A stretch of DNA of 64,000 nucleotides from Oscillospiraceae bacterium. GTDB taxonomy: Bacteria; Bacillota; Clostridia; Oscillospirales; CAG-272. The DNA is taken from the NCBI GenBank assembly GCA_015064385.1, contig SVSI01000002.1, forward strand, positions 65,315 through 129,314, written 5' to 3'. Positions 10,072 through 55,750 of the stretch are shown one piece after another. Made by a program: the position numbers and the translations under genes. Within the stretch, counting starts at the first letter, position 1, and each line of letters starts with the position of its first letter. The notes under the pieces were generated by a model that saw nothing but the letters and a program-made list of their open reading frames with translations, was not told the DNA's origin and made no database searches.

Positions 10072-10107
10072 AAAAACTTTTCGGCAAAGCCGAAAGATTT
10101 TGACAAT

Positions 10108-10138: not shown

Positions 10139-10293
10139 ATAAAAACACCGCGAGCGGCGTTTAGCAGTTTCGCTGTCGGACGGCAGTCCGACTTTTGGCA
10201 AAGCCAAAACCGCAAACTGCGCTCTTCGATTGAAGTTTGCTAAATGACGGTGAAGATGCGTTAACGGTTTGCTTTGCAAACCTAGAACCGATT

Positions 10294-14627: not shown

Positions 14628-15320
14628 ATGGGAACCAAATTACTTATCATTGAAGACGACAGCAATATAGCAGAGCTTATAAAGGTATATCTCACCAAGG
14701 AGGGATATGAGACCAAGATCGCATCCGACGGTGTTGAAGCGGTAAATTTCTTTAAGATGTTCGAGCCCGATCTCGTGCTTCTTGACATTATGCTTCCCCG
14801 CAAGGACGGTTGGCAGGTATGCCGTGAGATCCGCGAGATCTCTACCAAGCCGATCATCATGGTAACGGCAAAGGGCGAGGTATTTGACAAGGTACTCGGT
14901 CTTGAGCTTGGTGCAGACGACTTTATCGTAAAGCCCTTCGATATGAAGGAGCTCTCCGCCCGTATCAAGGCAGTTCTCCGCAGATACAGCGCACACGACA
15001 ATCAGAACGATAACGAGGTAATAAAATTCGAGAACATCGAGATCAGTCTCCAGAAATACGAGCTCAAGCTTAACGGCAAGAGCACCGATATTCCTCCGAA
15101 GGAGCTCGAGCTTCTCTATTTCCTCGCGGCAAACTACAACAGCGTATTTACCAGAGACAAGCTTCTGGACAAGGTTTGGGGATTTGACTACCTCGGCGAT
15201 TCTCGTACCGTTGACGTTCATATCAAGCGTCTTCGTGAAAAGCTCGAGGGCGTTTCGGACAAGTGGCAGCTTAAGACCGTTTGGGGAGTCGGCTACAAAT
15301 TCGAGCTTCTCCAGCCGTAA
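14628..15320 (+). CDS. OmpR/PhoB-family response regulator
   Basis: Receiver domain (LIIEDD...DLVLLDIMLP...TAKG) plus winged-helix C-terminus (RTVDVHIKRLREKL...TVWGVGYKF). AAAGGAG RBS. Confidence 0.9.
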   Translation: MGTKLLIIEDDSNIAELIKVYLTKEGYETKIASDGVEAVNFFKMFEPDLVLLDIMLPRKDGWQVCREIREISTKPIIMVTAKGEVFDKVLGLELGADDFIVKPFDMKELSARIKAVLRRYSAHDNQNDNEVIKFENIEISLQKYELKLNGKSTDIPPKELELLYFLAANYNSVFTRDKLLDKVWGFDYLGDSRTVDVHIKRLREKLEGVSDKWQLKTVWGVGYKFELLQP

Positions 15321-15364
15321 CTTAGGGCTCTGCCCTCAACGCCGCTTGCGGCGTTTTGAACCCG

Positions 15365-15410
15365 CCAAGAAACTTTTTATAAAAAGTTTCTTGGAACTTC
15401 AAAAATTTTA
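15365..15410 (-). repeat. palindromic intergenic element, copy A (reverse orientation)
   Basis: Hairpin CCAAGAAACTTTTT-AT-AAAAAGTTTCTTGG, followed by AACTTCAAAAATTTTAAT, which is the reverse complement of the family flank TTAAGTAAAGTTTTTGAAG. Confidence 0.7.
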
Positions 15411-15422
15411 ATAAAAAAAATT

Positions 15423-15446
15423 AAGAGCAGGAATTTTCCTGCTCTT
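15423..15446. terminator. palindromic terminator hairpin T1 (left end of the AT-rich cassette)
   Basis: AAGAGCAGGAATTTTCCTGCTCTT abuts the XRE stop codon (15447-15449). On the minus strand it is followed by a T-run. It is near-identical to 16707-16737. Confidence 0.75.
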
Positions 15447-15680
15447 TTATATTCTTTTTTCGATTTCCTTTACAATGTCACTCATATTGATACCAAGGGC
15501 TATACTTATACGGTAAAGCGTTTCGATAGTAGGTTTTCTCGCACCACACTCAATAGCGCTGAGATGCGTTCTGCCGATTCCCGCAAGTCCGCTTAACACC
15601 TCTTGCGATACTTTTTTGTTTTTCCGACAATATGCAATTGCCTGACCAACTATTTTGGGATCAAGAAATTCTTCCGTCAT
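15447..15680 (-). CDS. XRE-family helix-turn-helix transcriptional regulator (77 aa)
   Basis: MTEEFLDPKIVGQAIAYCRKNKKVSQEVLSGLAGIGRTHLSAIECGARKPTIETLYRISIALG is a Cro/C1-type HTH. GAGGTG lies 6 nt before ATG 15680. The track ORF start at 15752 has no RBS. Confidence 0.8.
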   Translation of the reverse strand: MTEEFLDPKIVGQAIAYCRKNKKVSQEVLSGLAGIGRTHLSAIECGARKPTIETLYRISIALGINMSDIVKEIEKRI

Positions 15681-15735
15681 TATATCACCTCGGATATATT
15701 GTACGTTCTTTTTTACAAAAATATGACTACATATG

Positions 15736-15764
15736 TTGACAATTGAACACATTTGTGTTATAAT
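15736..15764 (+). promoter_or_regulatory. consensus sigma-A promoter of the membrane-protein/DUF5067 operon
   Basis: TTGACA (15736-15741), 17-nt spacer, TGtTATAAT (-10 at 15759-15764). It overlaps the region upstream of the divergent XRE gene. Confidence 0.7.
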
Positions 15765-15785
15765 ACATTATCTTGCAGGTGTTAT

Positions 15786-16184
15786 ATGAGAAAAATCAAT
15801 AAATTTCTTTATTTCTGCTTGTTAAACTGTATTTTTGCCCTCCTTACAGGGGTAGCAATATATGTCTTGCTTCGTGAAAATACCTATATTAACAAGCTCA
15901 TAAATTTTCAAAAGATAGGCGTTTCGTCTGCCTTTGCAGACTTTTTGCGCTTTTATTTCGTTGATGCCTTGTGGTCATACGCTTTAACTTTTGCGCTTTC
16001 TATATTTATAAGCGAAATTATGGCAGGGGTTATATCAACTGTATTTGCAACATCTTGGGAGCTATTGCAGCTCTGCGGCTTTGTTGCGGGAACGTTTGAC
16101 ATCATTGACCTCATAATGTATCTTTCGGCAATCGTTGTTGCCGTCTTGATAATATATCTATATAAAAGGAGATTTTCACAATGA
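15786..16184 (+). CDS. small polytopic membrane protein (about 4 TM), function unknown
   Basis: MRKINKFLYFCLLNCIFALLTGVAIYVLL... has four hydrophobic segments and a C-terminal GTFDIIDLIMYLSA motif. AT-rich codon usage. It overlaps the next gene by 4 nt. Confidence 0.6.
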   Translation: MRKINKFLYFCLLNCIFALLTGVAIYVLLRENTYINKLINFQKIGVSSAFADFLRFYFVDALWSYALTFALSIFISEIMAGVISTVFATSWELLQLCGFVAGTFDIIDLIMYLSAIVVAVLIIYLYKRRFSQ

Positions 16185-16705
16185 AAACAACACTCACCAA
16201 ACGAATTTTAAGTATTATCGCCGTTATTTCACTGCTTCTTGCTTTTGGACTTTTTGCTATTGCAAGTTCTGACAGTGAGGGTAGTTCTGACGATCAGGGT
16301 TCCGGAGATGCTTCTTCCGACAGCGGCAAAGACTCAAACATCTACTACTACAACGTAAATATTAAAAGCTGTCGTCTTGCTAAAGATTATAGCGGCAATC
16401 CCATTGCAATTATTACTTATACTTTCACCAACAATGCTGAGGACGCCACCTGCTTTATGTACGCATTTAACGATGCGGTATATCAAAACGGTGTTGGCTT
16501 AAACAAATGTTATTTGACATCAGACACCGCAAATTATTCCTCCGAAAACCAAACCAAACAAATCAAAACGGGAGCAACATTGGACGTAGAGGTCGCTTAT
16601 GTCTTAAATGATGAAACTACAGACCTTGAGGTTGAAGTAAAACGCCTTATAGATTTCTTTGATAAAGATGAAATGATAACAAAAACTTTTAAGATTGCCA
16701 AATAA
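16181..16705 (+). CDS. secreted/anchored DUF5067-like protein
   Basis: Signal/anchor ILSIIAVISLLLAFGLFAIASS, a Ser/Asp-rich linker, then IKSCRLAKDYSGNPIAIITYTFTNNAEDATCFMYAF..VYQNGVGL, which resembles DUF5067-type domains. AAAGGAG RBS. Confidence 0.6.
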   Translation: MKTTLTKRILSIIAVISLLLAFGLFAIASSDSEGSSDDQGSGDASSDSGKDSNIYYYNVNIKSCRLAKDYSGNPIAIITYTFTNNAEDATCFMYAFNDAVYQNGVGLNKCYLTSDTANYSSENQTKQIKTGATLDVEVAYVLNDETTDLEVEVKRLIDFFDKDEMITKTFKIAK

Positions 16706-16706
16706 A

Positions 16707-16737
16707 AAAGAGCAGGAATTTTTCCTGCTCTTTTTTC
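16707..16737. terminator. palindromic terminator hairpin T2 (right end of the AT-rich cassette)
   Basis: AAAAGAGCAGGAATTTTTCCTGCTCTTTTTT starts right after the DUF5067 stop. Same stem as T1, with one extra T in the loop. Confidence 0.8.
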
Positions 16738-16772
16738 GTAGCAACGTTGACCTCTGCAACAGATTTTCTTTT

Positions 16773-16823
16773 AAGTAAAGTTTTTGAAGGGTTTGGGAAA
16801 CTTTTTACAAAAAGTTTCCCAAG
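16773..16823 (+). repeat. palindromic intergenic element, copy B (forward orientation)
   Basis: AAGTAAAGTTTTTGAAGGGTTTGGGAAACTTTTTACAAAAAGTTTCCCAAG, i.e. the family flank plus a 14-bp stem hairpin. Confidence 0.7.
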
Positions 16824-16842: not shown

Positions 16843-18201
16843 CTAATTCTTAAGACTCTGAAGAGGTGCGGGGATTCGTCCGCCGCGCGAGATAAATTTT
16901 GCGGGGCTCTTCGTATTATTTACCGGCATAACGGGACCGCTTCCGAGAAGTCCGCCAAACTCAAGCTCGTCTCCGACATTCTTTCCGATAGCGGGAATAA
17001 CTCTTACGGCGGTCGTCTTGGAATTGACCATACCGATAGCCGCTTCGTCGGCAATTATGGCAGAAATGACCTCTGCGCTCGTATCTCCGGGGATAACTAT
17101 CATATCAAGTCCGACCGAGCATACTGCGGTCATTGCCTCGAGCTTTTCGATCTTAAGATCACCGCTTCTTGCTGCCGCGATCATACCCGCGTCCTCGGAT
17201 ACGGGAATAAACGCACCGGAAAGTCCGCCAACGTGCGAGGACGCCATTACTCCGCCCTTCTTGACAGCGTCGTTGAGAAGAGCAAGCGCCGCCGTAGTTC
17301 CGTGAGTACCGCAGGTCTCAAGTCCCATTTCCTCAAGGATATGCGCGACCGAGTCGCCTACTGCGGGGGTGGGTGCGAGCGAAAGGTCAACTATTCCGAA
17401 CGGAACGCCGAGCATCTTCGACGCTTCGGTTCCGACGAGCTGACCCATGCGGGTGATCTTGAATGCCGTTTTCTTTATTATATCGGCAACCTGAGTGAGG
17501 TCGCCGTCCGGACATTTTTTGAGCGCCGCGTGTACGACACCGGGGCCCGAAACTCCTACGTTGATAACGCAGTCGGGCTCACCGACTCCGTGAAAAGCTC
17601 CCGCCATAAAGGGATTATCCTCGGGTGCATTACAGAAAACGACGAGCTTCGCGCAGGCAATGGAATCTCTGTCTGCGGTTATCTCTGCCGCTCTGCGAAC
17701 GACCTTACCCATCATTCCGACGGCGTCCATATTTATACCCGATTTCGTAGTTCCGATATTTACGGACGAGCAAACGCGAGTCGTGGTGGCAAGTGCCTCG
17801 GGAATAGACTCGATAAGCGCCTTGTCTCCCGCCGAAAAGCCCTTATGTACGAGAGCGGAGTAACCGCCTATAAAATTAACTCCGACCGCCAGAGCGGCTT
17901 TTTCGAGGGTATGTGCGTACTTTACGGGATCCCCACCGCTTACAGCCACGAGCATAGCAATGGGTGTTACCGAAATACGCTTGTTTATGATCGGTATTCC
18001 GTACTTTGCCTCGATCTCCTCGCCCGTTTTCACGAGATTTCCCGCAAGACGAATTATCTTATCATATATCTTCTCGCAAGACTTGTCGATATCGCTATCA
18101 GCACAGTCGAGAAGAGATATACCCATGGTTATCGTTCTTATATCAAGATTTTCTTCCTGAATCATGGTTATGGTTTCCATGATATCGGTAGTATTCAGCA
18201 T
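16843..18201 (-). CDS. UPF0210 / DUF711 family protein (PFL-like fold)
   Basis: [26 protein letters not shown]...INKRISVTP... is the characteristic UPF0210 N-terminus. It is paired with an upstream ACT-domain UPF0237 gene, as in many Firmicutes. Confidence 0.8.
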
Positions 18202-26415: not shown

Positions 26416-26420
26416 TACTT

Positions 26421-26470
26421 TTTTTCAAAAAATATGAGTTTTTTTCAAAAAAAGGGTTGATTTTTCAAAA
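26421..26470. repeat. three phased TTTTTCAAAA motifs (20-bp period)
   Basis: The exact 10-mer TTTTTCAAAA occurs at 26421, 26441 and 26461, between the divergent rpoB and rpsT promoters. Confidence 0.8.
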
Positions 26471-26485
26471 GAGTTGTGGTATTAT
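26457..26485 (+). promoter_or_regulatory. rpsT promoter
   Basis: TTGATT (26457-26462), 17-nt spacer, TGgTATTAT (-10 at 26480-26485). Confidence 0.6.
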
Positions 26486-28067: not shown

Positions 28068-29792
28068 TCAGCCTCTCCATGCACTTACCGTTCCGTCAAC
28101 ACAGATTACCTGCGTAACCGTTGGATCGCTTATCCAAAATCTATCCAAATCTATTTCAGCCCATTGCTCCTTTGTTCCGTTGAACATCACACTTTTGATA
28201 TTGGGACATCCGCTAAACGCACCGGATTCAATGTGCTTTACACCGGCTCCTAACGTCAAACTTGTCAGATTATAGCAACCAGAGAACGCATGATAGCCGA
28301 TACTCTCCACGCTGTCCGGTATAGTTATGCTCTTGAGTTTTTCAAGACCGAAGAATGAATCTGTATCAAGACTCTTTACGCCATTTTCTATCACCAAACT
28401 CGTAACATTGTCGCAACCCGAAAATGCGTCGTATCCAATACTATTTACACTGCCGGGTATTGTCAAACTTGTAAGATGGTCACAACTATAAAACGCCCAC
28501 GCCTCAATACTTGTCACGCTTTCTGGTATATCTATACTAGTTATACCGCAATTCCTAAACGTCTCGTCACCAATACTCGTAACTCCGTACGGAATTTTTA
28601 CGCTTTTAAGCTTAAAACATCCCGTAAATGCCCGCACCCCAATACTTGTCACACTATCAGGAATATCTACGTTCACAAGATTTTTACAATCATAAAATAT
28701 AGCCGCGCCAATTCTGGTAACTCCGTTTGGTATGGTTATAATTGTAAGACCTGTACACCCATGAAACGCGGAATCACCAATACTTGTAACTCCTTCGGGT
28801 ATAGTTATTCCCGCAAGACTCGTACATCCGTTAAATGCGAAATCACCTATGCTTGTAACTCCTTCGGGTATAGTTATTCCCGTAAGACTCGTACATCCGT
28901 TAAATGCGAAATCACCTATGCTTGTTATATTATCGGGTATCTTTATACTCGTAATATTTTTACATCCCGAGAAAGACCTGTATTCCAATTTGCCGCCAGT
29001 TACAGTCACAGTGGTCAGTGACGCAGGAAGATAGCGGGGGTTGTGCACTAACTTGTCCTGATACCGCTGTGACACCTTGGTTCCGCCGTCATACATACTC
29101 GATCCAAAGATATATGAAAAAAGTGCCTCTTCGCTTCCGTATTCTGCGTCAATGCTGCCGCCAACAAAAGGAACTGTCATACTTTCAAGTCCGCCACAAC
29201 CGTCAAAGGCACTTTCGCCGATACTGTTTACATTATCAGGTATAGTTATATTTGTAAGACCCACGCACTTTTCAAATGCAGAAGTGCCTATACTCGTTAC
29301 GTTACTCGGTATGGTTATATTTGTAAGACTGCCACACCCCGAAAACAAGTAATTTTCAATGCTTGTCAAATTGTTAGAAAGAGTTATGCTTTTAAGATTT
29401 TTGCACCCATAAAATGCAGAATTACCGATACTCGTCACACCGTCCGGTATCCTTATGCTCACGAGACTGCTGCAACCATCAAACGCAAATCTACCAATAC
29501 TCGTTACGCTATCGGGGATAGTTATGTTTTTAAGACTAATACAGTCTTGGAACGCATAGTCCCCGATGACAGCCACCCCTTCGGGTATATCATAAGAGTT
29601 TTTTTCTTTGTTTTCAACACCGGTAATTTCATAACCGCGAGAAGTTTTCTCGTATTTATAATCAGACAACAGCGCAGGATCGATATATACGTCCAAGCTT
29701 GCGTCATCTGTGTTACACCCTGTCAAAAACACACCAATCAGTACCGCAACGCAAAAAAAGAATAAAACTGTTAATCTTAAAGTCGATTTCAT
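28068..29792 (-). CDS. BspA-type leucine-rich-repeat surface lipoprotein
   Basis: Lipoprotein signal MKSTLRLTVLFFFCVAVLIGVFLTGC. About 20 repeats of the ~23-aa unit ITIPdsVTSIGdsAFxGCtsL. AAGGAG RBS. Confidence 0.85.
   Translation of the reverse strand: MKSTLRLTVLFFFCVAVLIGVFLTGCNTDDASLDVYIDPALLSDYKYEKTSRGYEITGVENKEKNSYDIPEGVAVIGDYAFQDCISLKNITIPDSVTSIGRFAFDGCSSLVSIRIPDGVTSIGNSAFYGCKNLKSITLSNNLTSIENYLFSGCGSLTNITIPSNVTSIGTSAFEKCVGLTNITIPDNVNSIGESAFDGCGGLESMTVPFVGGSIDAEYGSEEALFSYIFGSSMYDGGTKVSQRYQDKLVHNPRYLPASLTTVTVTGGKLEYRSFSGCKNITSIKIPDNITSIGDFAFNGCTSLTGITIPEGVTSIGDFAFNGCTSLAGITIPEGVTSIGDSAFHGCTGLTIITIPNGVTRIGAAIFYDCKNLVNVDIPDSVTSIGVRAFTGCFKLKSVKIPYGVTSIGDETFRNCGITSIDIPESVTSIEAWAFYSCDHLTSLTIPGSVNSIGYDAFSGCDNVTSLVIENGVKSLDTDSFFGLEKLKSITIPDSVESIGYHAFSGCYNLTSLTLGAGVKHIESGAFSGCPNIKSVMFNGTKEQWAEIDLDRFWISDPTVTQVICVDGTVSAWRG
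28783..28920. repeat. 69-bp tandem duplication inside the LRR gene (2 units, 1 mismatch)
   Basis: Units 28783-28851 and 28852-28920 differ only at CCCGCAAG vs CCCGTAAG. They encode TSIGDFAFNGCTSL(T/A)GITIPEGV twice. Confidence 0.9.
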
Positions 29793-30852: not shown

Positions 30853-32001
30853 TTATTTTCCGAATATCTTTTTAACAAAATCGCGTTTTTTCGCAAAATT
30901 TCCCTGTCCGCACGATTCGGAGAATTCACGCAGTATATCCTTCTGCTTACCCGTGAGGTTCTTCGGAGTCTCAACGGTAACGGTGAAATGAAGATCGCCG
31001 TTTCCGCGTCCGTTTATAACCTTTATTCCCTTACCTCTCATAGTAAAGGTGGTACCGGTCTGCGTACCCTCGGGGATCTTATATTTTTCGCTCGTGCCGT
31101 CGAGCATCGGGACGTCTATATCACCGCCGAGCGCCGCCTCAACGAATGTGATCGGCACGTCAACGTAAACGTCGTATCCGTCTCTCTGGAAGAACTTATG
31201 CGGTCTTACCGAAATGTAAACGAAAAGGTCGCCTGCGGGGCCGCCGTTAGCACCGTCGTTACCGTAGCCCTTACGCGCCACGCGCTGTCCCTCGTCAATT
31301 CCCGCGGGAATATTGATCTCGATATTCTTTTTGACTCTGACTTTTCCGTTTCCACGGCATTCGGAGCACGGATTTTTCACTATCTTACCCTTGCCGCCGC
31401 AGGTATCACAGACCTTGGTAGTCTGCATCATTCCGAGCATAGTGCGCTGCGTTACTCTGACTTGTCCGCTTCCGTGACAGGTCGGGCAGGTCTCGGGAGA
31501 GCTTCCCGGTGCCGCGCCGCTTCCGTGACAGGTCGAGCAGTTTTCTATCCTTGAATAATTTATTTCCTTTTTGCAACCGAAGACGGCTTCCTCAAAGGTC
31601 AGCGTCAGACGGAGAGAAAGATCGTCTCCGCGCATCGGACCGTTTCGTCTTTGCGAGGACGAGCCGCCGAATCCGCCGCCAAACATCGAGCTGAATATAT
31701 CGCCGAGATCGGAAAAATCTCCGAATCCGCCGCTAAATCCGCCGCCGTATCCACCCGCGCCTGCCGCGGGATCGAACGCGTCGTGTCCGAAGCGGTCGTA
31801 CTTTGCTCTCTTTTCGCTGTCCGAGAGCACCGAATACGCTTCGTTGACTTCCTTGAACTTCGTTTCGGCTTCGGGATCTCCCGAGTTCATATCGGGATGA
31901 TATTTTTTAGCAAGCGTTCTGTATGCTTTTTTTATAGTATCGTCGTCGGCATTCTTATCCACACCGAGGATCTCGTAGTAGTCACGCTTTGCGTCGGCCA
32001 T
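30853..32001 (-). CDS. dnaJ: molecular chaperone DnaJ
   Basis: J-domain DYYEILGV...[14 protein letters not shown], a G/F region and four CxxCxGxG zinc motifs. Confidence 0.97.
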
Positions 32002-32050
32002 AAACCGTTTTCTCCTTTGTTTTTATACTTGGGGCGTTGCTCCACCCCAC

Positions 32051-32097
32051 CGGAAAACTTTTTGGAAAAAGTTTTCCGTACTTTCAAAAACTTTACT
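32051..32097 (-). repeat. palindromic intergenic element, copy C1 (reverse)
   Basis: CGGAAAACTTTTT-GG-AAAAAGTTTTCCG followed by TACTTTCAAAAACTTTACT (the flank in reverse complement). It sits in the dnaK-dnaJ spacer. Confidence 0.7.
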
Positions 32098-32110
32098 AAA
32101 ATATTTTTAA

Positions 32111-32160
32111 TCAAAGTTTTTGAGGGTTTTAGGGGACTTTTTTTCAAAAAGTCCCCTAAG
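32111..32160 (+). repeat. palindromic intergenic element, copy C2 (forward)
   Basis: TCAAAGTTTTTGAGGGTTTT followed by the hairpin TAGGGGACTTTTT-TTC-AAAAAGTCCCCTA. Confidence 0.7.
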
Positions 32161-32170
32161 TCATTTTAAT

Positions 32171-34063
<1,893 letters not shown>

Positions 34064-35959: not shown

Positions 35960-36131
35960 AAACCGGCAGGAGATAGCATATAAATGCTGACCGAAGGAGT
36001 AAATCTCTCAGGTGTTGCGTCTCTGGCAACGTGGACTGTCGGCGGATAAAACTCTGAAGAAGCCCGTTAGATCGGGGGCCGAAGGTGCAAAGCTGCGTTT
36101 TGCAGTCAATCTCTCAGGCAAAAGGACGGAG
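35960..36131 (+). promoter_or_regulatory. tandem glycine riboswitch (two aptamers)
   Basis: Aptamer 1: GGAGA..ACCGAAGGAGUAA..CUCUCAGG...GGAC. Aptamer 2: CUCUGAAGA..GGGGGCCGAAGGUGCAA..CUCUCAGGCAAAAGGACGGAG. Both match the conserved glycine-aptamer cores. An alanine/glycine symporter lies downstream. Confidence 0.8.
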
Positions 36132-36279
36132 TCAAAGTATTTAATATTTAGGCGTATTTTCGCGTCTCTATATTCATTTACCGTGTCTTTATACTTTTAC
36201 TTAGGGCCTTGCTCTTTCGGCGAGACCTTGTTTTATTTTGCGATCCATAACATAACACATATAAAAGGAAGGAAGAAAA

Positions 36280-37788
36280 ATGGAGAAATTTTTAGCAGCC
36301 GTTGAGAAGGTCAACTCGGCGGTCAACAACGTAGTATGGGGAGTGCCCGCGCTCGTACTTCTGATCGGAACGGGAATACTCATAACGATTCTGACAAAAT
36401 TCTTTCAGTTTACGCGTTTCGGGCACGTAATAAAGGAAACGGTCGGATCACTTTTCAAGAAAAAGGACATTCTTAAAAGCAGTGATAAAAAGTCTATCTC
36501 GCAGTTCCAGGCGCTTTGCACTGCTCTTTCGGCAACTATCGGAACGGGTAACATCGTAGGTATTGCTCTTGCAATCACGATGGGAGGTCCCGGCGCGGTA
36601 TTCTGGATGTGGGTAGCCGCAATATTCGGAATGATGACGAACTATGCGGAAAACGTACTCGGAATATATTTCCGCAGAAAGAATGCAAAAGGCGAATGGG
36701 CAGGCGGCGCTATGTACTACTTGCGAGACGGTCTGGGCTCATACAAGGGATTTAAGACGATAGGAAAAATCCTTGCCGTACTCTTCTCTATATTTGCACT
36801 TATGGCATCCTTCGGAATTGGAAATATGGGACAGGTTGCCTCAATAACCGAAAGTGTTGGTGCGGTAGTCACCGTTGACGGCGCAGAAAAATGGCTCCCT
36901 TGGGTGATCGGTATCGTTCTTATGATAGTCGGCGCGCTCGTTATACTCGGCGGAATAAAGAGAATCGCAAGGGTCAACGAGATGCTCGTTCCCTTTATGG
37001 CGGGATTCTACATAATCGGCGCAATAGTAATAATTTGCATGAATATAGGTCAGGTAGGCCCTGCCTTTGCCGCTATTTTCAAGGGCGCGTTCAATATGCG
37101 CGCAGCAAGCGGAGGTATCTCGGGCGCAATTATAGCACAGGCAATAACCTGGGGCTTCAAGCGCGGAGTGTTCTCTAACGAAGCGGGACTCGGCTCGTCC
37201 GTAATGGTACACTCGTCCTCTAACGTAAAGGAGCCCGCAATTCAGGGCGCTTGGGGTATTTTCGAGGTATTCTTCGATACGATAATAGTTTGCACCCTTA
37301 CCGCACTCGTTATCCTCACCAGCGGAGTTTTCGACCTTACCACCAATACGGCAGTTGACGGACTCACCAAGCTCGGACTTGCAACGAGAGCGTTCACCGA
37401 AAGCTTCGGAGCGTTCGGCGGTATCTTTATGGCGGTAGCCGTAACCCTGTTCGCATTCTCTACCGTTCTCGGCTGGAGCCACTACGGAACTATCGCTTGG
37501 CAGTACCTTTTCGGAACGAAGTCGGTAGTTATATACAAGTTCATATTCGTCGGAATGATACTGGTCAGCTCGACCATCAATGCAACTCTTGCAATAGATC
37601 TCTCGGACACCTTCAACGGTCTTATGGCGATTCCCAACCTCATAGGCGTCATATCCCTCTCGGGACTCGTAGTTAAGATAACGAACAACTACGTTGCGCG
37701 AAAGATAAAGAAAAAGACCGACGTAAAGCCGATGTATTCGGCATTCGAAGACATTCAGAAGATGCAGGAAGAAAGCGCAGAAGAATAA
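36280..37788 (+). CDS. agcS: alanine/glycine:cation symporter (AGCS family)
   Basis: SQFQALCTALSATIGTGNIVG, YAENVLGIYFR and FSNEAGLGSS motifs, with about 11 TM segments. Confidence 0.9.
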   Translation: MEKFLAAVEKVNSAVNNVVWGVPALVLLIGTGILITILTKFFQFTRFGHVIKETVGSLFKKKDILKSSDKKSISQFQALCTALSATIGTGNIVGIALAITMGGPGAVFWMWVAAIFGMMTNYAENVLGIYFRRKNAKGEWAGGAMYYLRDGLGSYKGFKTIGKILAVLFSIFALMASFGIGNMGQVASITESVGAVVTVDGAEKWLPWVIGIVLMIVGALVILGGIKRIARVNEMLVPFMAGFYIIGAIVIICMNIGQVGPAFAAIFKGAFNMRAASGGISGAIIAQAITWGFKRGVFSNEAGLGSSVMVHSSSNVKEPAIQGAWGIFEVFFDTIIVCTLTALVILTSGVFDLTTNTAVDGLTKLGLATRAFTESFGAFGGIFMAVAVTLFAFSTVLGWSHYGTIAWQYLFGTKSVVIYKFIFVGMILVSSTINATLAIDLSDTFNGLMAIPNLIGVISLSGLVVKITNNYVARKIKKKTDVKPMYSAFEDIQKMQEESAEE

Positions 37789-40927: not shown

Positions 40928-40967
40928 AAATAATAAAGTCACGGCAAAAGCCGTGACTTTATTATTT
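40928..40967 (-). terminator. ssrA terminator
   Basis: AAATAATAAAGTCACGGC-AAAA-GCCGTGACTTTATTATTT, directly after the tmRNA 3' end. Confidence 0.8.
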
Positions 40968-40968
40968 A

Positions 40969-41325
40969 TGGACCCGGGGAGAGTCGAACTCCCGTCCGAA
41001 AACCTCTTAATATGACCTTCTACGAGTGTAGTTTGTCTGTGATCTCCCGACACTGTGCGGACAAACAAAACACAGTATCGGCAGCCGTCTTATGCGTGAG
41101 AGCTGCGACGACGAGCTCACCCTTCACGTTCATCACTGCATGACGTTCAGTTTCGGGCCGTGATACTCCCGAAAGGAACGGGCTGCCTTAGGCAGCGGCA
41201 CCGCTTACGCGGCCTGAGCTACTCTATTGTTAGCGTTTAATTTTAATGTTGGGCAGATTTAAGAGTTTACCCCGCTCTACTCGCTTATCATACCTCAAAA
41301 TCCCCGTCGAAACCTTTACGGGCCC
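40969..41325 (-). ncRNA. ssrA: transfer-messenger RNA (tmRNA)
   Basis: The minus strand starts GGGCCCGTAAAGGTTTCGACGGGGATTT and ends GGACGGGAGTTCGACTCTCCCCGGGTCCA. The acceptor stem has the G3:U wobble and there is a T-arm. The predicted tag reading frame GCT AAC AAT AGA GTA GCT CAG GCC GCG TAA gives ANNRVAQAA. It lies adjacent to smpB. Confidence 0.9.
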
Positions 41326-41801: not shown

Positions 41802-41883
41802 ATCGGCGGTCCTCCTTTCTTTTTCGGTGATCTTGATTATATCACAGTTTTCTGTCTTATTCAAGTGTTTTTTGTCTTTTTCA

Positions 41884-41937
41884 TTGAGAGAAACTTTTTG
41901 AAAAAAGTTTCTCTCAAACTCTCTTCAAAAACTTTTA
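41884..41937 (-). repeat. palindromic intergenic element, copy D1 (reverse)
   Basis: TTGAGAGAAACTTTTT-GA-AAAAAGTTTCTCTCAA followed by ACTCTCTTCAAAAACTTTTAT (the flank in reverse complement). Confidence 0.7.
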
Positions 41938-41945
41938 TAAACTAT

Positions 41946-42001
41946 TTAAGTAAAGTTTTTGGGGAGGTTTGGAACCCCTTTTTCCAAAAAGGGGTTCCAA
42001 G
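41946..42001 (+). repeat. palindromic intergenic element, copy D2 (forward)
   Basis: TTAAGTAAAGTTTTTGGGGAGGTTT followed by the hairpin GGAACCCCTTTTT-CC-AAAAAGGGGTTCC. Confidence 0.7.
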
Positions 42002-42015
42002 ATCCGCTCCCTAAA

Positions 42016-42888
42016 CTAATTTATCAGTTCCTTATAAATCGTGCTCTTGCCGACACCGCGGGCGCGGGCAGTTTCCTTAATTGCGTCCATTTTCTCCATA
42101 CCGAGCGACATATAGTGCTCTACCTGCTCAGTAACCGTCATATCCTTCCAGAAGCACTCACCTTCGTCGGACGCCCCCTCAACGACTATAACGTACTCTC
42201 CGCGCGGCGAATTCTCATTGTAAAATTCGACTGCCTGCGAGAGCTTTATGCGTTTTACCTCTTCGTTAAGCTTGGTTATCTCACGGCAAAGAGCTATATT
42301 TCTGTCGCCGAAATTTTCATAAAATGCTTCGAGCGTTGCGAGGAGACGGTGCGGAGCTTCGTAGAATATCACCGTCCGCTTTTCATTTTTGAGCTCGGAA
42401 AGACGGGATTTTACCTCGCTTTTCGTACCCGAAACGAATCCCTCGAACACGAATCTTCTCGTGTCAAGACCCGAAAGAGTGAGCGCAGTTATTGCGGCGC
42501 AGGCGCCCGGGATTGAGGTCACGGGAACTTCATTTTCGGCGCAAAGACGAACGAGATCTTCACCGGGATCGCTGATCGCGGGCGTTCCCGCATCGGTAAT
42601 GAGCGCACAGGACTCACCGTCCTTCAGACGCTTTACTATCTGCGGACCGCGTTCGCGCTTGTTGTGCTCAAAATAGCTGACAAGCGGCTTTGAGATGCCG
42701 AAATAAGTAAGGAGCTTCGCAGAATTGCGAGTATCCTCCGCGGCAACGAAATCCACTCCCTCAAGGACCTTAAGCGCGCGATACGATATATCGGCGAGGT
42801 TGCCTATCGGTGTTGCCACAAGATAGAGCGTTCCCTTTTCTATTTTATTTTTTTCTTCAAATCTGTCCTCAAAATTACGCTCTTTCAT
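42016..42888 (-). CDS. rsmI: 16S rRNA (cytidine1402-2'-O)-methyltransferase
   Basis: GTLYLVATPIGNLADISYRALKVLEGVDFVAAEDTRNSAKLL and ALITDAGTPAISDPG. The start is uncertain (42888, 42915 or 42963). 42888 gives the usual ~290 aa. Confidence 0.85.
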   Translation of the reverse strand: MKERNFEDRFEEKNKIEKGTLYLVATPIGNLADISYRALKVLEGVDFVAAEDTRNSAKLLTYFGISKPLVSYFEHNKRERGPQIVKRLKDGESCALITDAGTPAISDPGEDLVRLCAENEVPVTSIPGACAAITALTLSGLDTRRFVFEGFVSGTKSEVKSRLSELKNEKRTVIFYEAPHRLLATLEAFYENFGDRNIALCREITKLNEEVKRIKLSQAVEFYNENSPRGEYVIVVEGASDEGECFWKDMTVTEQVEHYMSLGMEKMDAIKETARARGVGKSTIYKELIN

Positions 42889-43642
42889 ATTCCTTGCCAA
42901 ATTCTCCGTTTTCATAAATATATGTGAGATCGTCTGTATAAACGAGCGGCTTTTCAGACGCATCGGGGTGCATAATAAGCGGTTTTGTCACGAGCAGTCC
43001 GCCTGAGCCGCCGAGCTTTCCCTCAACGAGCACCATACTTGGACGGCTTTTTGCGTCCGCATAGACCACCGTCATTCTTTTCGGCTCTATTTTCGATCCT
43101 CTCATAGCGTCAAAAAGATCGGTAAGACGGTCGGGACGCCAAACGACGTAAAAGCTTCCCGAATACTTGAGCATTCTCGCTGCCGCCGAGCAGAAATCGT
43201 AAATATCACCGCATACCTCGTGTCTTGCGATATATTTTTCATCGCTCGCGTTACGCGCGCCGCTATTCTTTTTCATATACGGCGGATTTGAGAATACTGC
43301 GTCAAATTTACCGTACAACTCTACGGGCGCGTCCTGCACTGCCGTGCAAAGCGTTTCTATCTTACCCTCAAGAGCGTTTTCCCTTACGTTGCGCTTTATC
43401 AGCTCTGCAAAGGTCTTTTGGACCTCGAGAGCGTATATCTTTGAAAACTTGCCCTTTGCGGCGGCAAGAAGGGATATTATTCCCGTACCTGCGCCAAGAT
43501 CCGCGGCAAGTCCCTTTGGGTTTTTTCTCAAATACGCATAAAGAAGATACGCGTCCGTGCCAAAAGTCAGCCCGAGCGTCTTTTGCGTAAGAGTAATATT
43601 TTCGTTAACAAAGTCTATTCTTTCTCCGTCCTTAACGCTCAC
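42875..43642 (-). CDS. YabB/TrmN6-like SAM-dependent methyltransferase (NPPY class)
   Basis: DLGAGTGIISL (motif I) and FSNPPYMK (motif IV). It occupies the same position as Bacillus yabB, upstream of rsmI. Confidence 0.75.
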   Translation of the reverse strand: MSVKDGERIDFVNENITLTQKTLGLTFGTDAYLLYAYLRKNPKGLAADLGAGTGIISLLAAAKGKFSKIYALEVQKTFAELIKRNVRENALEGKIETLCTAVQDAPVELYGKFDAVFSNPPYMKKNSGARNASDEKYIARHEVCGDIYDFCSAAARMLKYSGSFYVVWRPDRLTDLFDAMRGSKIEPKRMTVVYADAKSRPSMVLVEGKLGGSGGLLVTKPLIMHPDASEKPLVYTDDLTYIYENGEFGKEYERA

Positions 43643-53907: not shown

Positions 53908-55716
53908 ATGAACGAAAAACAGCAAAAAACAAGAAATTTTTCAATAATCGCTCATATAGATCACGGAAAATCCACTCTCGCCGACCGTCTGCTTGAAGCA
54001 ACGCGCGCGGTCTCAACGAGAGAGATGGAAAACCGACTTCTTGACAATATGGAGCTTGAACGCGAGCGCGGAATAACCATAAAAGCGCGCGCGGTAAAGC
54101 TCAATTATGTTGCAAAGGACGGCGAGACCTACGATCTTAACCTTATTGACACCCCCGGTCACGTTGACTTCAATTACGAGGTGTCAAGATCTCTCAATGC
54201 TTGCGAGGGCGCACTTCTCGTTATTGACGCAACTCAGGGCATTGAGGCGCAAACGCTTGCAAACGCGTATCTTGCAGACGAGAACGGACTTGAAATCGTC
54301 CCTGTTATAAACAAAATAGATCTTCCCTCGGCAGACGTGGAAAGAGTACGCACCGAGATCGAGGATATTATAGGCATCCCCGCGGACGAAGCTCCCGCAG
54401 TTTCGGCGAAAACGGGACAAAACATCGAAGATGTTCTTGAAGCGGTAGTTAAAAACGTACCCGCACCCAAGGGCGATCCGAGCGCTCCCCTTGCCTGCCT
54501 TATATTCGACTCGTATTACGACTCCTACCTCGGCGTCGTGGTCTATATAAGAGTTATGAACGGAACGCTCCGTAGCGATGACAAGATAAAGCTTATGCAT
54601 ACGGGAGCACAGTTTGACGTCGTTGACGTCGGAACGCTGACACCGTTCGGTCTGCAAAAAGAGGACGTTCTTGAGGCAGGTCAGGTCGGCTACTTTACCG
54701 CAAGCATAAAAAACGTATCGGACACACGCGTAGGCGACACCGTAACGCACGTTGAAAATGGGGTGTCAGAGCCGCTTGATGGCTTCAAGCAGGCACTTCC
54801 TATGGTCTTTTCGGGTATCTATCCCGCAGACGGCTCAAAGTACGGCGATCTTCGCGACGCTCTTGAAAAATTAAAGCTAAACGACGCTTCTCTCAGCTAC
54901 GAGCCCGAGACCTCCGCAGCACTCGGCTTCGGCTTCAGATGCGGATTTCTCGGTCTTCTCCACATGGAAATAATTCAGGAGAGGATAGAGCGCGAATTTA
55001 ATCTCGACATAATCACGACCGCACCAAGCGTTATTTACAAAATAACGAGACGCTCGGGAGAGGTGGTGTTTATCGACAACCCCTCGAACTATCCGTCTGC
55101 GGACGATATAGAGATCGCGGAGGAACCGGTCATAAAGGCGAGCATAATCACGCCCACCGAATACGTAGGCGCAATTATGGACCTATGCCAGGACAGACGC
55201 GGCACCTTCAACGATATGAAATATCTTGACGAAAAGCGCGCCGAGCTCTTTTACGAGCTTCCCCTCAACGAGGTAATTTACGATTTCTTTGACGCGCTTA
55301 AGAGCCGCAGCAAGGGATACGCTTCCCTCGACTACGAAATGGACGGATACCGTCCAAGCAAGCTCGTAAAGCTTGATATTCTCCTCAACGGAGACGTGGT
55401 TGACGCGCTTTCCTTTATAGTACATGACTCAAAGGCATACACCCGCGGAAGAAAGATCGCCGAAAAGCTCAAGGAAAACATTCCGCGTCACCTTTTCGAA
55501 ATACCGATACAGGCGGCTATCGGCGGCAGAATAATCGCCCGCGAGACGGTAAAAGCACTGCGCAAGGACGTCCTTGCAAAATGCTACGGCGGTGACATCA
55601 CCCGTAAGAAAAAGCTGCTTGAAAAGCAGAAGGAAGGTAAAAAGAAGATGCGTATGCTCGGCAGCGTAGAGGTTACGCCCGAAGCGTTTATGGCTGTTCT
55701 TAAGCTGGACGAATAA
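53908..55716 (+). CDS. lepA: elongation factor 4 (LepA)
   Basis: [34 protein letters not shown], and the LepA C-terminal domain ending ...[10 protein letters not shown]. Confidence 0.97.
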
Positions 55717-55727
55717 CACAAAAAACG

Positions 55728-55750
55728 GGGAACTTTGATAAAAAGTTCCC
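55728..55750. repeat. partial family member: hairpin only (copy E)
   Basis: GGGAACTTT-GATAA-AAAGTTCCC shares the AACTTT...AAAGTT core but lacks the AAAGTTTTTGA flank. There is no downstream T-run on the + strand. Confidence 0.4.

Follow-up and report, generated by a model that had tools for sequence, protein, structure and literature searches.

The window, by which we mean the whole 64-kb stretch of DNA that was analyzed, carries six full copies of a short intergenic unit, all lying within a few bases of the places given for them in a preliminary description. The unit has a polarity: from 5′ to 3′ it starts with the tag AAAGTTTTTG, continues with a purine-rich segment (S1, the putative third strand), and after a short T-rich linker ends in a hairpin. 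Copy A (15365–15409, minus strand; 66.8 bits by covariance model) is found 44 nt past the stop of a response-regulator gene (14628–15320, plus strand) and comprises a right arm (15365–15372), an apex (15373–15386), a left arm (15387–15394), S1 with linker (15395–15399) and the tag AAAATTTTTG (15400–15409). Copy B (16777–16822, plus strand; 55.1 bits) is 19 nt from the stop of a DUF711 gene (16843–18201, minus strand), with tag at 16777–16786, S1 AAGGGT at 16787–16792, left arm TTGGGAAA at 16793–16800, apex CTTTTTACAAAAAG at 16801–16814 and right arm at 16815–16822; its DNA hairpin folds at −12.2 kcal/mol (z −3.8) by Watson-Crick folding. The remaining copies form two tail-to-tail pairs. Copy C1 (32051–32094, minus strand; hairpin 32051–32078, S1 with linker 32079–32084, tag 32085–32094; 64.2 bits) lies upstream of dnaJ (30853–32001, minus strand), while copy C2 (32113–32159, plus strand; tag 32113–32122, S1 32123–32128, hairpin 32129–32159; 51.1 bits) has its hairpin approximately 10 nt past the stop of dnaK (32171–34012, minus strand), and an 18-nt AT-rich centre lies between the two. 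Copy D1 (41884–41935, minus strand; hairpin 41884–41917, S1 with linker 41918–41925, tag 41926–41935; 51.4 bits) ends upstream of the smpB promoter (TTGAAT-17-TATAAT, 41836–41864, minus strand), approximately 20 nt from the −35 box, and its partner D2 (41952–42000, plus strand; tag AAAGTTTTTG 41952–41961, S1 GGGAGGT 41962–41968, hairpin 41969–42000; 49.9 bits) is approximately 14 nt past the stop of rsmI (42016–42963, minus strand).

By chance, approximately 0.1 full copies would be expected in the window, compared with exactly six observed. The motif CTTTTT-N0-5-AAAAAG occurs six times where 0.09 are expected, with the flank present at six of six, and AAAGTTTTTGA with at most one mismatch occurs nine times (2.5 expected). 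A covariance model was built from 22 copies, of which A and C1 belong to the window and the other 20 to other genomes; its full-length matches in the window were exactly these six, at 50–67 bits and each on the strand first assigned to it. A hairpin at 55727–55750 that had been counted as a hairpin-only relative scored 11 bits (E = 2.2), has no flank, and is a separate hairpin. Folding, with tools that model Watson-Crick hairpins only, confirmed that paired copies form three consecutive hairpins, as had been proposed (z from −8 to −9.6: −8.1 and three hairpins for the C1/C2 pair, −9.6 for the D1/D2 pair).

Additional small modules adjoin some copies. Directly 3′ of C1 is a GC-rich mini-hairpin, GGGGTGGAGCAACGCCCC (32031–32048, minus strand), and 16 of 124 copies are followed by a module of this build (G-run, N1-5, G-run-C, 3-nt loop, G-C-run); the one beside C1 is exchanged for a different module in a strain with 97% identical DnaJ. 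Beside A are two GC-rich triloop hairpins (15325–15355, minus strand; GGGCTCTGCCC at 15325–15335 and AACGCCGCTTGCGGCGTT at 15338–15355), and the same two-triloop composite follows a copy in another genome. A and B are themselves arranged tail to tail like the C and D pairs, on either side of a 1.37-kb interval (15410–16776) that holds an HTH_3 gene (15447–15752, minus strand), an ORF for a 132-aa membrane-like protein (15786–16184, plus strand) and a DUF5067 gene (16181–16705, plus strand), and that is bounded by near-identical bidirectional terminators at 15423–15446 and 16708–16732. Genes between the halves of a pair were seen twice, here and between the D2 and D1 orthologues of locus L340, which enclose an analogous gene. 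Two short unitigs hinted at an "empty" A–B allele; contigs with an identical response regulator did not confirm it, as the cassette was present or the contig broken inside it in 10 of the 10 contigs listed (of 16).

Covariation within the unit

The top of the hairpin is CTTTTT(T)-N1-2-AAAAAG, and the outer stem differs in every copy yet remains paired. The two outer arms were first described as changing together, and among 22 equal-length copies 98.7% of cells are paired, 8 of 8 outer pairs have changed on both sides, and none of 500 shuffles reached the observed covariation score. Across 124 copies the stems contain 1021 Watson-Crick pairs, 17 G-T, 9 A-C and 12 others. The asymmetric apex CTTTTTTCAAAAAG is present in 75 of the 124, always in the sense that matches the tag. 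The repeat family, with its conserved flank and covarying hairpin, is genuine.

In four copies, the first stem bases had been reported as repeated upstream across a TTT spacer. What is found instead, in nearly all copies, is a mirror repeat of the inner arm: S1 is the mirror image of the inner left arm and not a direct repeat of it, and it co-varies with that arm both copy by copy and between orthologous sites. This relationship is newly found here. Permutation tests gave z of approximately 12 for the mirror and approximately 6 for the direct relation, and among informative copies the mirror fitted better than the direct repeat in 60 and worse in 4. In 46 of the 49 cases in which a C of the arm adjoins the T run, S1 carries a G, and C-run and G-run lengths are equal in 76 of 84 copies. 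Run lengths in S1 and arm are correlated at 0.70–0.82 (G runs, r = 0.81; A runs, r = 0.82, with S1 usually one A shorter). In an independent set of 17 model matches that were not selected by pattern, the mirror relation again stood out (z = 3.4), and 0 of 2000 permutations scored as high. Copying cannot give rise to a mirror relation, which purine-motif triplexes are known to require (PMC4666352).

Because the upstream "repeat" is a mirror repeat, a third strand is indicated rather than alternative Watson-Crick folds. The mirror covariation of S1 is what would be expected as the sequence signature of an intrastrand triple helix, putatively with T.A-T triples on top and G.G-C and A.A-T triples below, and the unit has the three consecutive blocks with a mirror-related third that define a potential intrastrand triplex motif (class I, ITxF sense). 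Watson-Crick pairing of S1 with either arm was rejected, given that it would set G opposite G and A opposite A, and the alternative pairing of AAAGTTT with AAACTTT that had been suggested is limited to copies whose arm ends in AAAC and is hence not a feature of the family. A G-quadruplex was likewise rejected, since G runs are missing in many copies. In approximately 16 of 116 copies S1 starts with a C opposite a G:C pair, for which no standard triplet fits.

We infer the following fold. Once the unit strand is single-stranded, the hairpin would form and its major groove would take up the folded-back tag and S1. At the A5:T5 top, the T5 of the tag would make T.A-T triples and run parallel to the A tract; along the purine-rich left arm, S1 would run antiparallel and make G.G-C and A.A-T (or T.A-T) triples. 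The outcome would be an alternate-strand intramolecular triplex. Copies insert, disappear, duplicate in tandem and pair tail to tail, for the most part just past genes, and selection would preserve the fold by compensating changes. A transcript would thereby acquire a strong stem-loop in either orientation, which could protect its 3′ end or act as an intercistronic barrier, and the DNA would acquire a spot prone to slippage and insertion. To the reading of the copies as a dispersed, lineage-specific, non-coding DNA repeat whose probable fold is an alternate-strand intramolecular triplex kept by compensation we give an even chance. Two features of the unit run counter to the fold: the linker is just 1–2 nt if the outermost stem pairs remain closed, and in tail-to-tail pairs the two tags can pair together as a central hairpin. 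Oligonucleotides of the TMECO/BoxC repeats form stable intrastrand triplexes in vitro, while for TMECO neither double-stranded DNA nor DMS footprinting in vivo revealed a triplex (PMC4666352).

More tentatively, and with a probability well short of even, selection may maintain the alternate-strand triplex in a great many intergenic elements of bacteria across phyla, as a handle for single-strand-specific machinery (mobilisation, replication or RNA 3′-end protection), with the AT-rich pair centres as preferred landing sites for accessory genes, as the A–B interval and the L340 D2–D1 orthologues might suggest. If this is true, the three-way covariation would provide the first evidence, comparative and drawn from sequence only, that triplexes form in cells and matter there.

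Distribution and turnover

A family restricted to the window would have counted against the first description, which itself called for a search for further copies; that search found more than 119 loci carrying the family, so the description passes on this point. The hosts are mostly Clostridia MAGs, with the family abundant in those from the gut, and they also include isolates and MAGs of Acidocella, Desulfovibrio relatives, Verrucomicrobia, Acidobacteriota, Planctomycetota and others. Isolates that carry it include Acutalibacter caecimuris M00118, Maridesulfovibrio sp. FT414 and Acidocella facilis ATCC 35904. Most close relatives are without it. Element-bearing loci totalling 657 kb gave 141 model matches at E ≤ 0.001, of which approximately 125 are full-length and the remainder are the bare hairpin read on the opposite strand. 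Some loci have several copies per 8 kb. CodY and other Firmicute-only operators were rejected as explanations because the family also occurs outside Firmicutes, integron attC because the orientation is wrong and R/L boxes are absent, and carriage by phages as a rule because viral contigs gave only 42 pattern matches. The first description had not recognised a described family, and indeed no Rfam 15 family was matched at its gathering threshold by the window elements or by 126 kb of element-rich loci; the best sub-threshold match, to BTnc231, is of a generic multi-hairpin type and reaches 40.5 bits where 80.4 would be required, and permissive thresholds yielded generic hairpin matches only. Searching the literature for the literal motifs brought up primers and shRNA constructs only. 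The family is apparently uncatalogued.

Orthologous sites show gain, loss and compensation. Scans with DnaJ across GTDB genomes and JGI metagenomes gave no relative above 66% identity, and closer ones came only from a protein-cluster search. Between strains with 97% identical DnaJ a C1 stem pair has changed from G:C to A:T, and between relatives the D1 stem has changed from T:A to C:G and from A:T to G:C. In L341, whose RsmI is 85% identical, both stems and both S1 segments differ from those of the window, with D1 obeying the mirror rule exactly and D2 approximately; in L343 a stem pair has changed while S1 has not, and there is a tandem duplication. One metagenome strain has lost the C1 hairpin by a 33-nt slippage deletion (32053–32085). 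The pair was not found in a relative with 81% identical RsmI nor in relatives with 78% and 89% identical DnaJ, and the element is absent from 80 more distant dnaJ loci; it is therefore not a conserved regulator of dnaK–dnaJ or rsmI–smpB, where a possible role as mRNA stabiliser or attenuator had been suggested from its position. At its place in the dnaK–dnaJ spacer, relatives carry one strong GC hairpin, GGGGAAGGCAG...CTGCCTTCCCC. Compared with a MITE, tail-to-tail pairs have inverted symmetry but differing arms.

Such turnover could also be that of a non-autonomous mobile element, REPIN- or PATE-like, whose unit or pair is mobilised as single-stranded DNA by a dedicated enzyme, such as an HUH/Y1 transposase, with its gene elsewhere. 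What the enzyme recognises would then be the hairpin with its folded-back tag, and only copies that keep the fold would multiply. We regard this as possible, though on balance improbable. It would account for an abundance that is patchy and lineage-specific (6 copies in the 64 kb of the window vs. 1 full copy in 476 kb of relatives), for orthologous sites that are both filled and empty, for the recurrence of tail-to-tail dimers, and for the presence of the family in distant phyla, isolates included. Subfamilies with identical cores occur in different contigs and genomes, several contigs end in the element (L044, L071, L108, L109), the summed contig depth over A and C2 in the source metagenomes is approximately 100 times that of their flanks, and copies adjoin Mob_Pre relaxase genes on presumably mobilisable elements. 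However, a Pfam scan of seven element-adjacent ORFs of the window found no transposase, no target-site duplication is visible between the filled rsmI–smpB site and the one empty site compared with it, and the six window copies have different stems, unlike the products of a recent burst. Furthermore, orthologous sites show compensating changes, and these suggest that selection acts on each locus and not just on the ability to transpose.

Placement relative to genes and transcription signals

The placement proposed at the outset, like that of REP elements, was borne out: copies follow genes, and of 67 typed sites 25 are convergent, 38 co-directional and only 4 divergent, with inverted dimers as in REP. 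From the hairpin side to the gene end the median distance is 36 nt. Co-directional sites show no orientation bias (20 vs. 18 by sense), which argues against a strictly sense-specific RNA role. A sigma-70 promoter inside the unit was rejected, there being no −10 box at the right spacing. Metatranscriptome contigs matched only conserved parts of dnaK from other organisms and did not cover the dnaK–dnaJ spacer.

An RNA element, in which the hairpin in 3′ UTRs and operon spacers blocks 3′–5′ exonucleases or partly terminates transcription and thereby sets differential expression as REPs do, is unlikely as the main explanation. Stem-loops generally mark transcript 3′ ends (PMC13613805), and a position just past stop codons, at 10–19 nt for dnaK, rsmI and DUF711 in the window, would suit such a role, as would the replacement of the relatives' GC hairpin between dnaK and dnaJ and the compensating substitutions at single loci. 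The tail could conceivably clamp the hairpin as an RNA triple helix, with U.A-U triples in the forward transcript and, in the reverse one, both U.A-U and C+.G-C. RNA is reported not to support purine-motif triplexes, however, and BoxC/PIT elements showed no sign of terminator activity (PMC4666352). G-T mismatches slightly outnumber A-C, as a transcribed strand would predict, but the difference (17 vs. 9) is not significant. The strong polarity of the unit, combined with the lack of sense bias, means that an RNA role leaves tag and S1 unexplained in half of cases. Moreover, five of the six window copies have no T run past the hairpin.

A site on duplex DNA is considerably less probable. According to this explanation the A/T core (TTTTTTCAAAAA, AAAGTTTTT) is bound by a widespread bacterial protein, such as the RNA polymerase alpha C-terminal domain at UP-like tracts or a nucleoid protein, or else is intrinsically bent. 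The apex motif does occur without a stem, as TTTTTTTCAAAAAA repeats phased at 20 bp upstream of the rpsT promoter (26419–26475) and conserved in relatives, so that the A/T core might have a role in duplex DNA. The core is also present just upstream of a perfect promoter at 15736–15764, D1 is directly upstream of the smpB promoter, and conservation of the core across phyla demands a common factor. On the other hand, most copies face gene ends and not promoters, divergent regions are avoided, and binding to the duplex gives no cause for the covariation of the outer stem or the mirroring by S1; the hairpin and mirror covariation argue against it as the main constraint.

Ordinary, unrelated intrinsic terminators that are alike by chance, which had been named as an outcome fatal to the family, can be dismissed with near certainty: copies do follow genes and C2, alone of the six, passes a simple terminator scan, on the strand antisense to dnaK, but family statistics refute the idea, with a 10-nt tag and a 14-nt apex common to more than 120 copies in many genomes, T tracts missing as noted, and canonical terminators in use elsewhere in the same genome (e.g., 15423–15446).

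Comparison with known systems

The copies, read as a dispersed repeat with a triplex-prone fold, have as their closest known kinds the BoxC/PIT/TMECO triplex repeats and REP/BIME, and by analogy the family appears to belong in one broad class with both, the BoxC/PIT repeats being known as "potential intrastrand triplex" elements. REP/BIME/REPIN elements are likewise 20–40-nt palindromes with an unpaired tag on one side, present in many copies per genome, often oppositely paired and able to form larger structures, known from several phyla, and placed past genes where the neighbouring ORFs are convergent or unidirectional (Di Nocera et al., 2013, PMC3733652). The family shares this combination of high-copy short palindromes after genes, at convergent or unidirectional sites and often as inverted dimers. 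In contrast, its stems have no genome-wide consensus, and its tag is 10 nt and set off from the stem by a covarying segment, where that of REP is a GTAG/CGTC tetranucleotide. A search for REP tags within 8 nt of the stem in 124 copies found GTAG once on the 5′ side and CTAC and CGTC twice each on the 3′ side, at odds with a REP tag. Stem-loops that stabilise mRNA in intercistronic regions or 3′ UTRs, including REP, resemble the family in lying after stops and within operons and in offering a strong hairpin in either orientation, but they need no conserved tag, apex or mirrored segment, all of which the family has.

As in the fold proposed for the family, in H-DNA and in alternate-strand triplexes with designed (T,G)/(G,A) third strands T stands opposite A:T and G opposite G:C, and the third strand mirrors the purine strand. 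The third strand of alternate-strand triplexes follows the purine tract as it changes strand and is one base shorter at the switch. Such triplexes are laboratory constructs or involve homopurine mirror repeats of duplex DNA, whereas the family would be a natural single-strand fold-back of mixed sequence.

The family may also have practical consequences. It breaks assemblies of gut Clostridia MAGs, marks gene ends, occupies operon spacers such as that of dnaK–dnaJ, and locally gives rise to indels, duplications and insertions of genes. For its annotation, a covariance model is now available.

BoxC/PIT/TMECO repeats, described in E. coli and other Proteobacteria, are also short, dispersed and intergenic, with three blocks on one strand of which the third mirrors the purine arm so that a purine-motif intrastrand triplex is possible (Holder et al., 2015, PMC4666352). 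As in the family, some occur as inverted ("palindromic") pairs, copy number is very variable between close relatives, small deletions are associated with them, and they follow no orientation rule with respect to genes and have no known function (PMC4666352). The TMECO consensus is CCCTCNCCC-N3-6-GGGNGAGGG-N3-GGGNGAGGG (PMC4666352), and the family, which is unrelated in sequence, does not match it. The family has the third strand first (class I, RH-R-Y), whereas TMECO has it last (class II, Y-R-RH), and its hosts are mainly Clostridia and several non-proteobacterial phyla. Unlike TMECO, it has an added invariant T5 / T5-6 / A5 top and AAAG tag, and hence a third strand that would switch from one purine tract to the other. 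Bacterial triplex-forming repeats were thus already known in BoxC/PIT, but these are conserved in sequence, so that nothing in them shows that the third strand matters. In the family the stem is free and all three strands vary together, which extends to a putative triple helix the type of evidence accepted for RNA helices, and the long-standing question of whether intramolecular triplexes form and are selected in vivo becomes testable.

Unit anatomy and the relation of S1 to the stem

All six copies reported in the preliminary description (A, B, C1, C2, D1 and D2) lie where it had placed them in the window. Six instances of CTTTTT-N0-5-AAAAAG are present in the window, where 0.09 would be expected, and 6/6 carry the flank; AAAGTTTTTGA with at most one mismatch occurs nine times against 2.5 expected. 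A covariance model trained on 22 copies, of which 20 came from other genomes and two were A and C1 of the window, has exactly these six as its full-length matches in the window, at 50-67 bits, each on the strand originally named for it. The hairpin E at 55727-55750 (GGGGAACTTT-GATA-AAAGTTCCC, between one gene that ends at 55716 and another that starts at 55778) had been proposed as a hairpin-only relative; it scores 11 bits, lacks the flank and is excluded from the family, and tag, T5/A5 top and T tract are all missing from it.

The unit is polar and comprises, in order, the tag AAAGTTTTTG, a purine-rich segment (S1), one to three T, and the hairpin. The hairpin top is almost invariant (CTTTTTTCAAAAAG in 75/124 copies), and the sense of the T6-C-A5 asymmetry of its apex always matches that of the tag. 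The lower stem, of 4-15 bp, varies in sequence between copies while its pairing is kept: the 124 copies hold 1021 Watson-Crick, 17 G-T, 9 A-C and 12 other pairs. In 22 equally long copies, 98.7% of cells are paired, falling to 64-73% when the partner is slid by one column, and eight of eight outer pairs have changed on both sides, bearing out the outer-stem covariation first read from the window. The stem covariation score was reached by 0/500 shuffles. Folding predicts about -12 kcal/mol for the DNA hairpin of a single unit, and predicted folds of the tail-to-tail pairs C1+C2 and D1+D2 agree with the three consecutive hairpins suggested earlier (z -8 to -9.6); tag-tag pairing is an alternative fold within pairs.

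GGG-TTT-GGG and GAGAG-TTT-GAGAG had been taken as direct repeats; a mirror relation fits instead. These two cases read alike both ways and, being symmetric, are uninformative, while GAAGGG-TTT-GGGAAAC, GAAAGGAGG-CGC-GGAGGAAAAAC and GAAGGGGGAG-TTT-GAGGGGGAAAC are asymmetric and informative. When S1 was compared with its own arm and with the arms of other copies in a permutation test, the mirror relation scored z of about 12, against about 6 for the direct relation, and the reverse complement gave no signal. Among 83 copies whose S1 is not mirror-symmetric, 60 favored mirror and 4 direct, with 19 ties, and the same mirror signal was found in 17 model matches outside the search-pattern selection (z = 3.4, 0/2000 permutations as high). 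The relation obeys a precise rule, TTTTT-G-(G)n-(A)m-1-(G)h ... (G)h-(A)m-(C)n-C-TTTTT. In 76/84 copies S1 opens with a G run as long as the C run of the arm, and lengths of A runs (r = 0.82, S1 usually having one A fewer) and of G runs (r = 0.81) are correlated between S1 and arm. The S1 base facing an arm C is G in 46/49 cases; facing an arm G it is G, and facing an arm A it is A or T. In about one-seventh of copies S1 begins with C, which no standard triplet accommodates there. Pairing of S1 with either arm is impossible by Watson-Crick rules. Replication yields only direct or inverted copies, so the mirror relation is not producible by copying.

A potential intrastrand triplex

In purine-motif triplexes the third strand has the sequence of the purine strand and lies antiparallel to it, forming G.G-C, A.A-T or T.A-T triplets (PMC4666352). 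Judged by its sequence, the mirror repeat of S1 and arm would supply exactly what such a helix requires. In the proposed fold, T5 of the tag would lie parallel to A5 of the right arm in Hoogsteen T.A-T triples, the G bases after T5 would remain on the right-arm purines, AAAAAG(G)n, and the third strand would next cross over to the left-arm purines, at the place of the single A missing from S1. (T,G) oligonucleotides have served to construct alternate-strand triplexes of this type. The complementary strand would form a pyrimidine-motif counterpart, with C+.G-C and T.A-T below and A.A-T above. For the complete fold the best candidate is the forward DNA strand: its triplets are all pH-independent, and RNA is reported not to form purine-motif triplexes (PMC4666352). 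Half of the fold could still form in RNA, as U.A-U in the forward sense or, in the reverse sense, as C+.G-C and U.A-U. Most likely the family is an intergenic DNA repeat, dispersed and under structural constraint, with a potential intrastrand triplex as its unit.

Gene context bears on a possible part for RNA. Genes were called with a purpose-written codon-model caller that reproduces the window's genes, and the orientation statistics rest on such approximate calls: 25 of 67 typed sites are convergent, 38 co-directional and 4 divergent, with both orientations equally common in co-directional spacers (20 vs 18). The median distance to a gene end is 36 nt on the hairpin side and 122 nt on the tag side. 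In C2, D2 and B the hairpin follows the stop of a gene (dnaK, rsmI and a DUF711 gene, respectively) by 10-19 nt, and A lies 44 nt past a response-regulator gene. No T tract follows the hairpin in 5/6 window copies, and canonical terminators are used elsewhere in the genome (e.g., 15423-15446). Read-through transcripts would gain a strong stem-loop in either orientation. In the dnaK-dnaJ spacer, the C pair is found in relatives with DnaJ 97% and 90% identical and is missing at 89% and 78% identity, where one plain GC hairpin stands in its place; this replacement suggests that the element can serve in the role of the plain hairpin. Since there is no sense bias, an RNA role alone leaves the polar tag and S1 unexplained.

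Alternatively, though with low probability, the A/T core might act in duplex DNA, a possibility raised by its occurrence without a stem, phased upstream of the rpsT promoter and conserved in relatives. Three TTTTT(TT)CAAAA(AAA) motifs, 20 bp apart at 26419-26475 and equivalent to the A/T core of the apex, lie immediately upstream of the rpsT (S20) promoter (TTGATT ... TGGTATTATAAT) and are kept in relatives with DnaJ 90% and 78% identical; one such motif also precedes the promoter at 15736. These stemless motifs look like UP-element or bent-DNA features.

Other modules and features were also observed. Elements are often followed by a second small module (G-run / 1-5 nt / G-run-C / 3-nt loop / G-C-run, e.g., GGGGTTTGGGGCGGAGCCCC), found at 32031-32048 and 15325-15355 and at L011, L015, L021, L093, L101, L102 and other loci from other genomes, whose layout of third strand, then hairpin, is that of the elements. 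Some of these modules have a nested hairpin, ACGCCGC-AAG-GCGGCGT, and GGCCGCCGGAGGC follows other copies, even across phyla. Past a gene ending at 10071 are two similar small hairpins, CTTTTCGGC-AAA-GCCGAAAG and CTTTTGGC-AAA-GCCAAAA (10075-10100 and 10190-10215), with a canonical terminator, ACCACGCCC...GGGCGTGGTTTTTG, between them. The window also has a glycine riboswitch (36044-36139, + strand) upstream of a gene at 36280-37788, and a 69-nt tandem repeat (28717-28954, about 3.4 copies, 83-90% identical) inside an ORF at 28068-29792 (- strand).

Turnover at orthologous sites and spread between genomes

Graded relatives were obtained by protein-cluster searches. In the strain with 97% DnaJ identity (L334), the C1 stem has changed from CGGAAAAC/GTTTTCCG to CCAGAAAAC/GTTTTCTGG, a G:C to A:T double change, and the GC module beside C1 has been exchanged for another. 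In one gut metagenome strain, a 33-nt deletion (32053-32085) bounded by internal direct repeats AAAACTTT removes the C1 hairpin and S1 with the tag kept, and looks like replication slippage. In the rsmI-smpB spacer, about 20 nt separate the end of D1 from the smpB promoter (TTGAAT-17-TATAAT) downstream of it; smpB is followed directly by a tmRNA gene (40966-41325, - strand) with tag peptide ANNRVAQAA. A relative with 81% RsmI identity has a 90-nt spacer without the element and an identical right boundary, GACAAAAAACAC-TTGAAT. At 89% the D pair is present with D1 decaying, and at 90% (L340) D1 carries T:A to C:G changes. One 85% relative has a tandemly duplicated D1 unit and an A:T to G:C change to which S1 has not yet adjusted; in another, both stems and both S1 are replaced, D1 fitting the rule exactly and D2 approximately. 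On a short time scale, units appear and vanish, duplicate and acquire compensating changes. That orthologous loci show compensation speaks for selection at each site, and patchy abundance together with identical subfamilies speaks for copy-and-insert spread; both may operate together.

The interval between A and B, which lie tail to tail, is taken up exactly by a three-gene cassette (15410-16776) with an HTH_3 gene (15447-15752, - strand), a 132-aa membrane-like ORF (15786-16184, + strand) and a DUF5067 gene (16181-16705, + strand), bounded by near-identical palindromic terminators (15423-15446 and 16708-16732) and having a 12/12 sigma-70 promoter at 15736-15764. In one metagenome strain, 433 unrelated bases replace 16282-16702. 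A 304-aa ORF without a Pfam match lies between the D2 and D1 orthologues of L340 (L340:3456-4370), the same geometry, and the AT-rich pair center may be a favored site of gene insertion.

Scanning one genome per species with the exact pattern gave at least 119 loci, nearly all with a proper stem. Among the matches listed, most loci are from Clostridia-type gut MAGs and isolates (labeled Eubacteriales, Oscillospiraceae, Ruminococcus or Lachnospiraceae, and including Acutalibacter caecimuris) and about 22 are from other groups. Carriers outside the Clostridia include Acidocella facilis ATCC 35904, Maridesulfovibrio sp. FT414 (complete genome), Halodesulfovibrio and other Desulfobacterota, Verrucomicrobia/Opitutales, Acidobacteriota/Aminicenantes, 'Ca. 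Magnetomicrobium' and a Planctomycetota MAG; 42 of 2.9 million viral contigs have a pattern match. Some loci hold five copies per 8 kb or tandem arrays (L005, L014, L017, L093), and in 80 related genomes the 476 kb surrounding dnaJ contained only one full copy. In metagenomes containing the organism, the summed depth of contigs that match A and C2 at 85-90% identity or more is about 100x that of unique flanks, and near-identical copies are therefore numerous. A Mob_Pre relaxase gene stands beside a copy in four genomes. At L016, L035, L043 and L114 (e.g., L114:2328-3712), the copy lies about 110-160 nt upstream of the Mob_Pre (MOBV) gene and adjoins conserved hairpins resembling oriT, the entire block being kept in four different Clostridia genomes. 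These copies presumably lie on a mobilisable element, which would be one possible route between lineages.

Comparison with known repeat families

No Rfam family matched at threshold, and the element had not been recognised as a described family at the outset either. REP/BIME elements resemble it in location, copy number and inverted dimers (PMC3733652), but the GTAG/CGTC tag that defines them is absent. Closest in principle are the BoxC/PIT/TMECO repeats, which are dispersed, sometimes palindromic and indel-prone, are without promoter or terminator activity, and form an intrastrand triplex shown in vitro, not in vivo (PMC4666352). The paper on them makes no mention of Clostridia or of covariation. 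Compared with these repeats, the present family has a different sequence, block order and host range, and adds to their plan a variable, three-way covarying stem and a T/A top.
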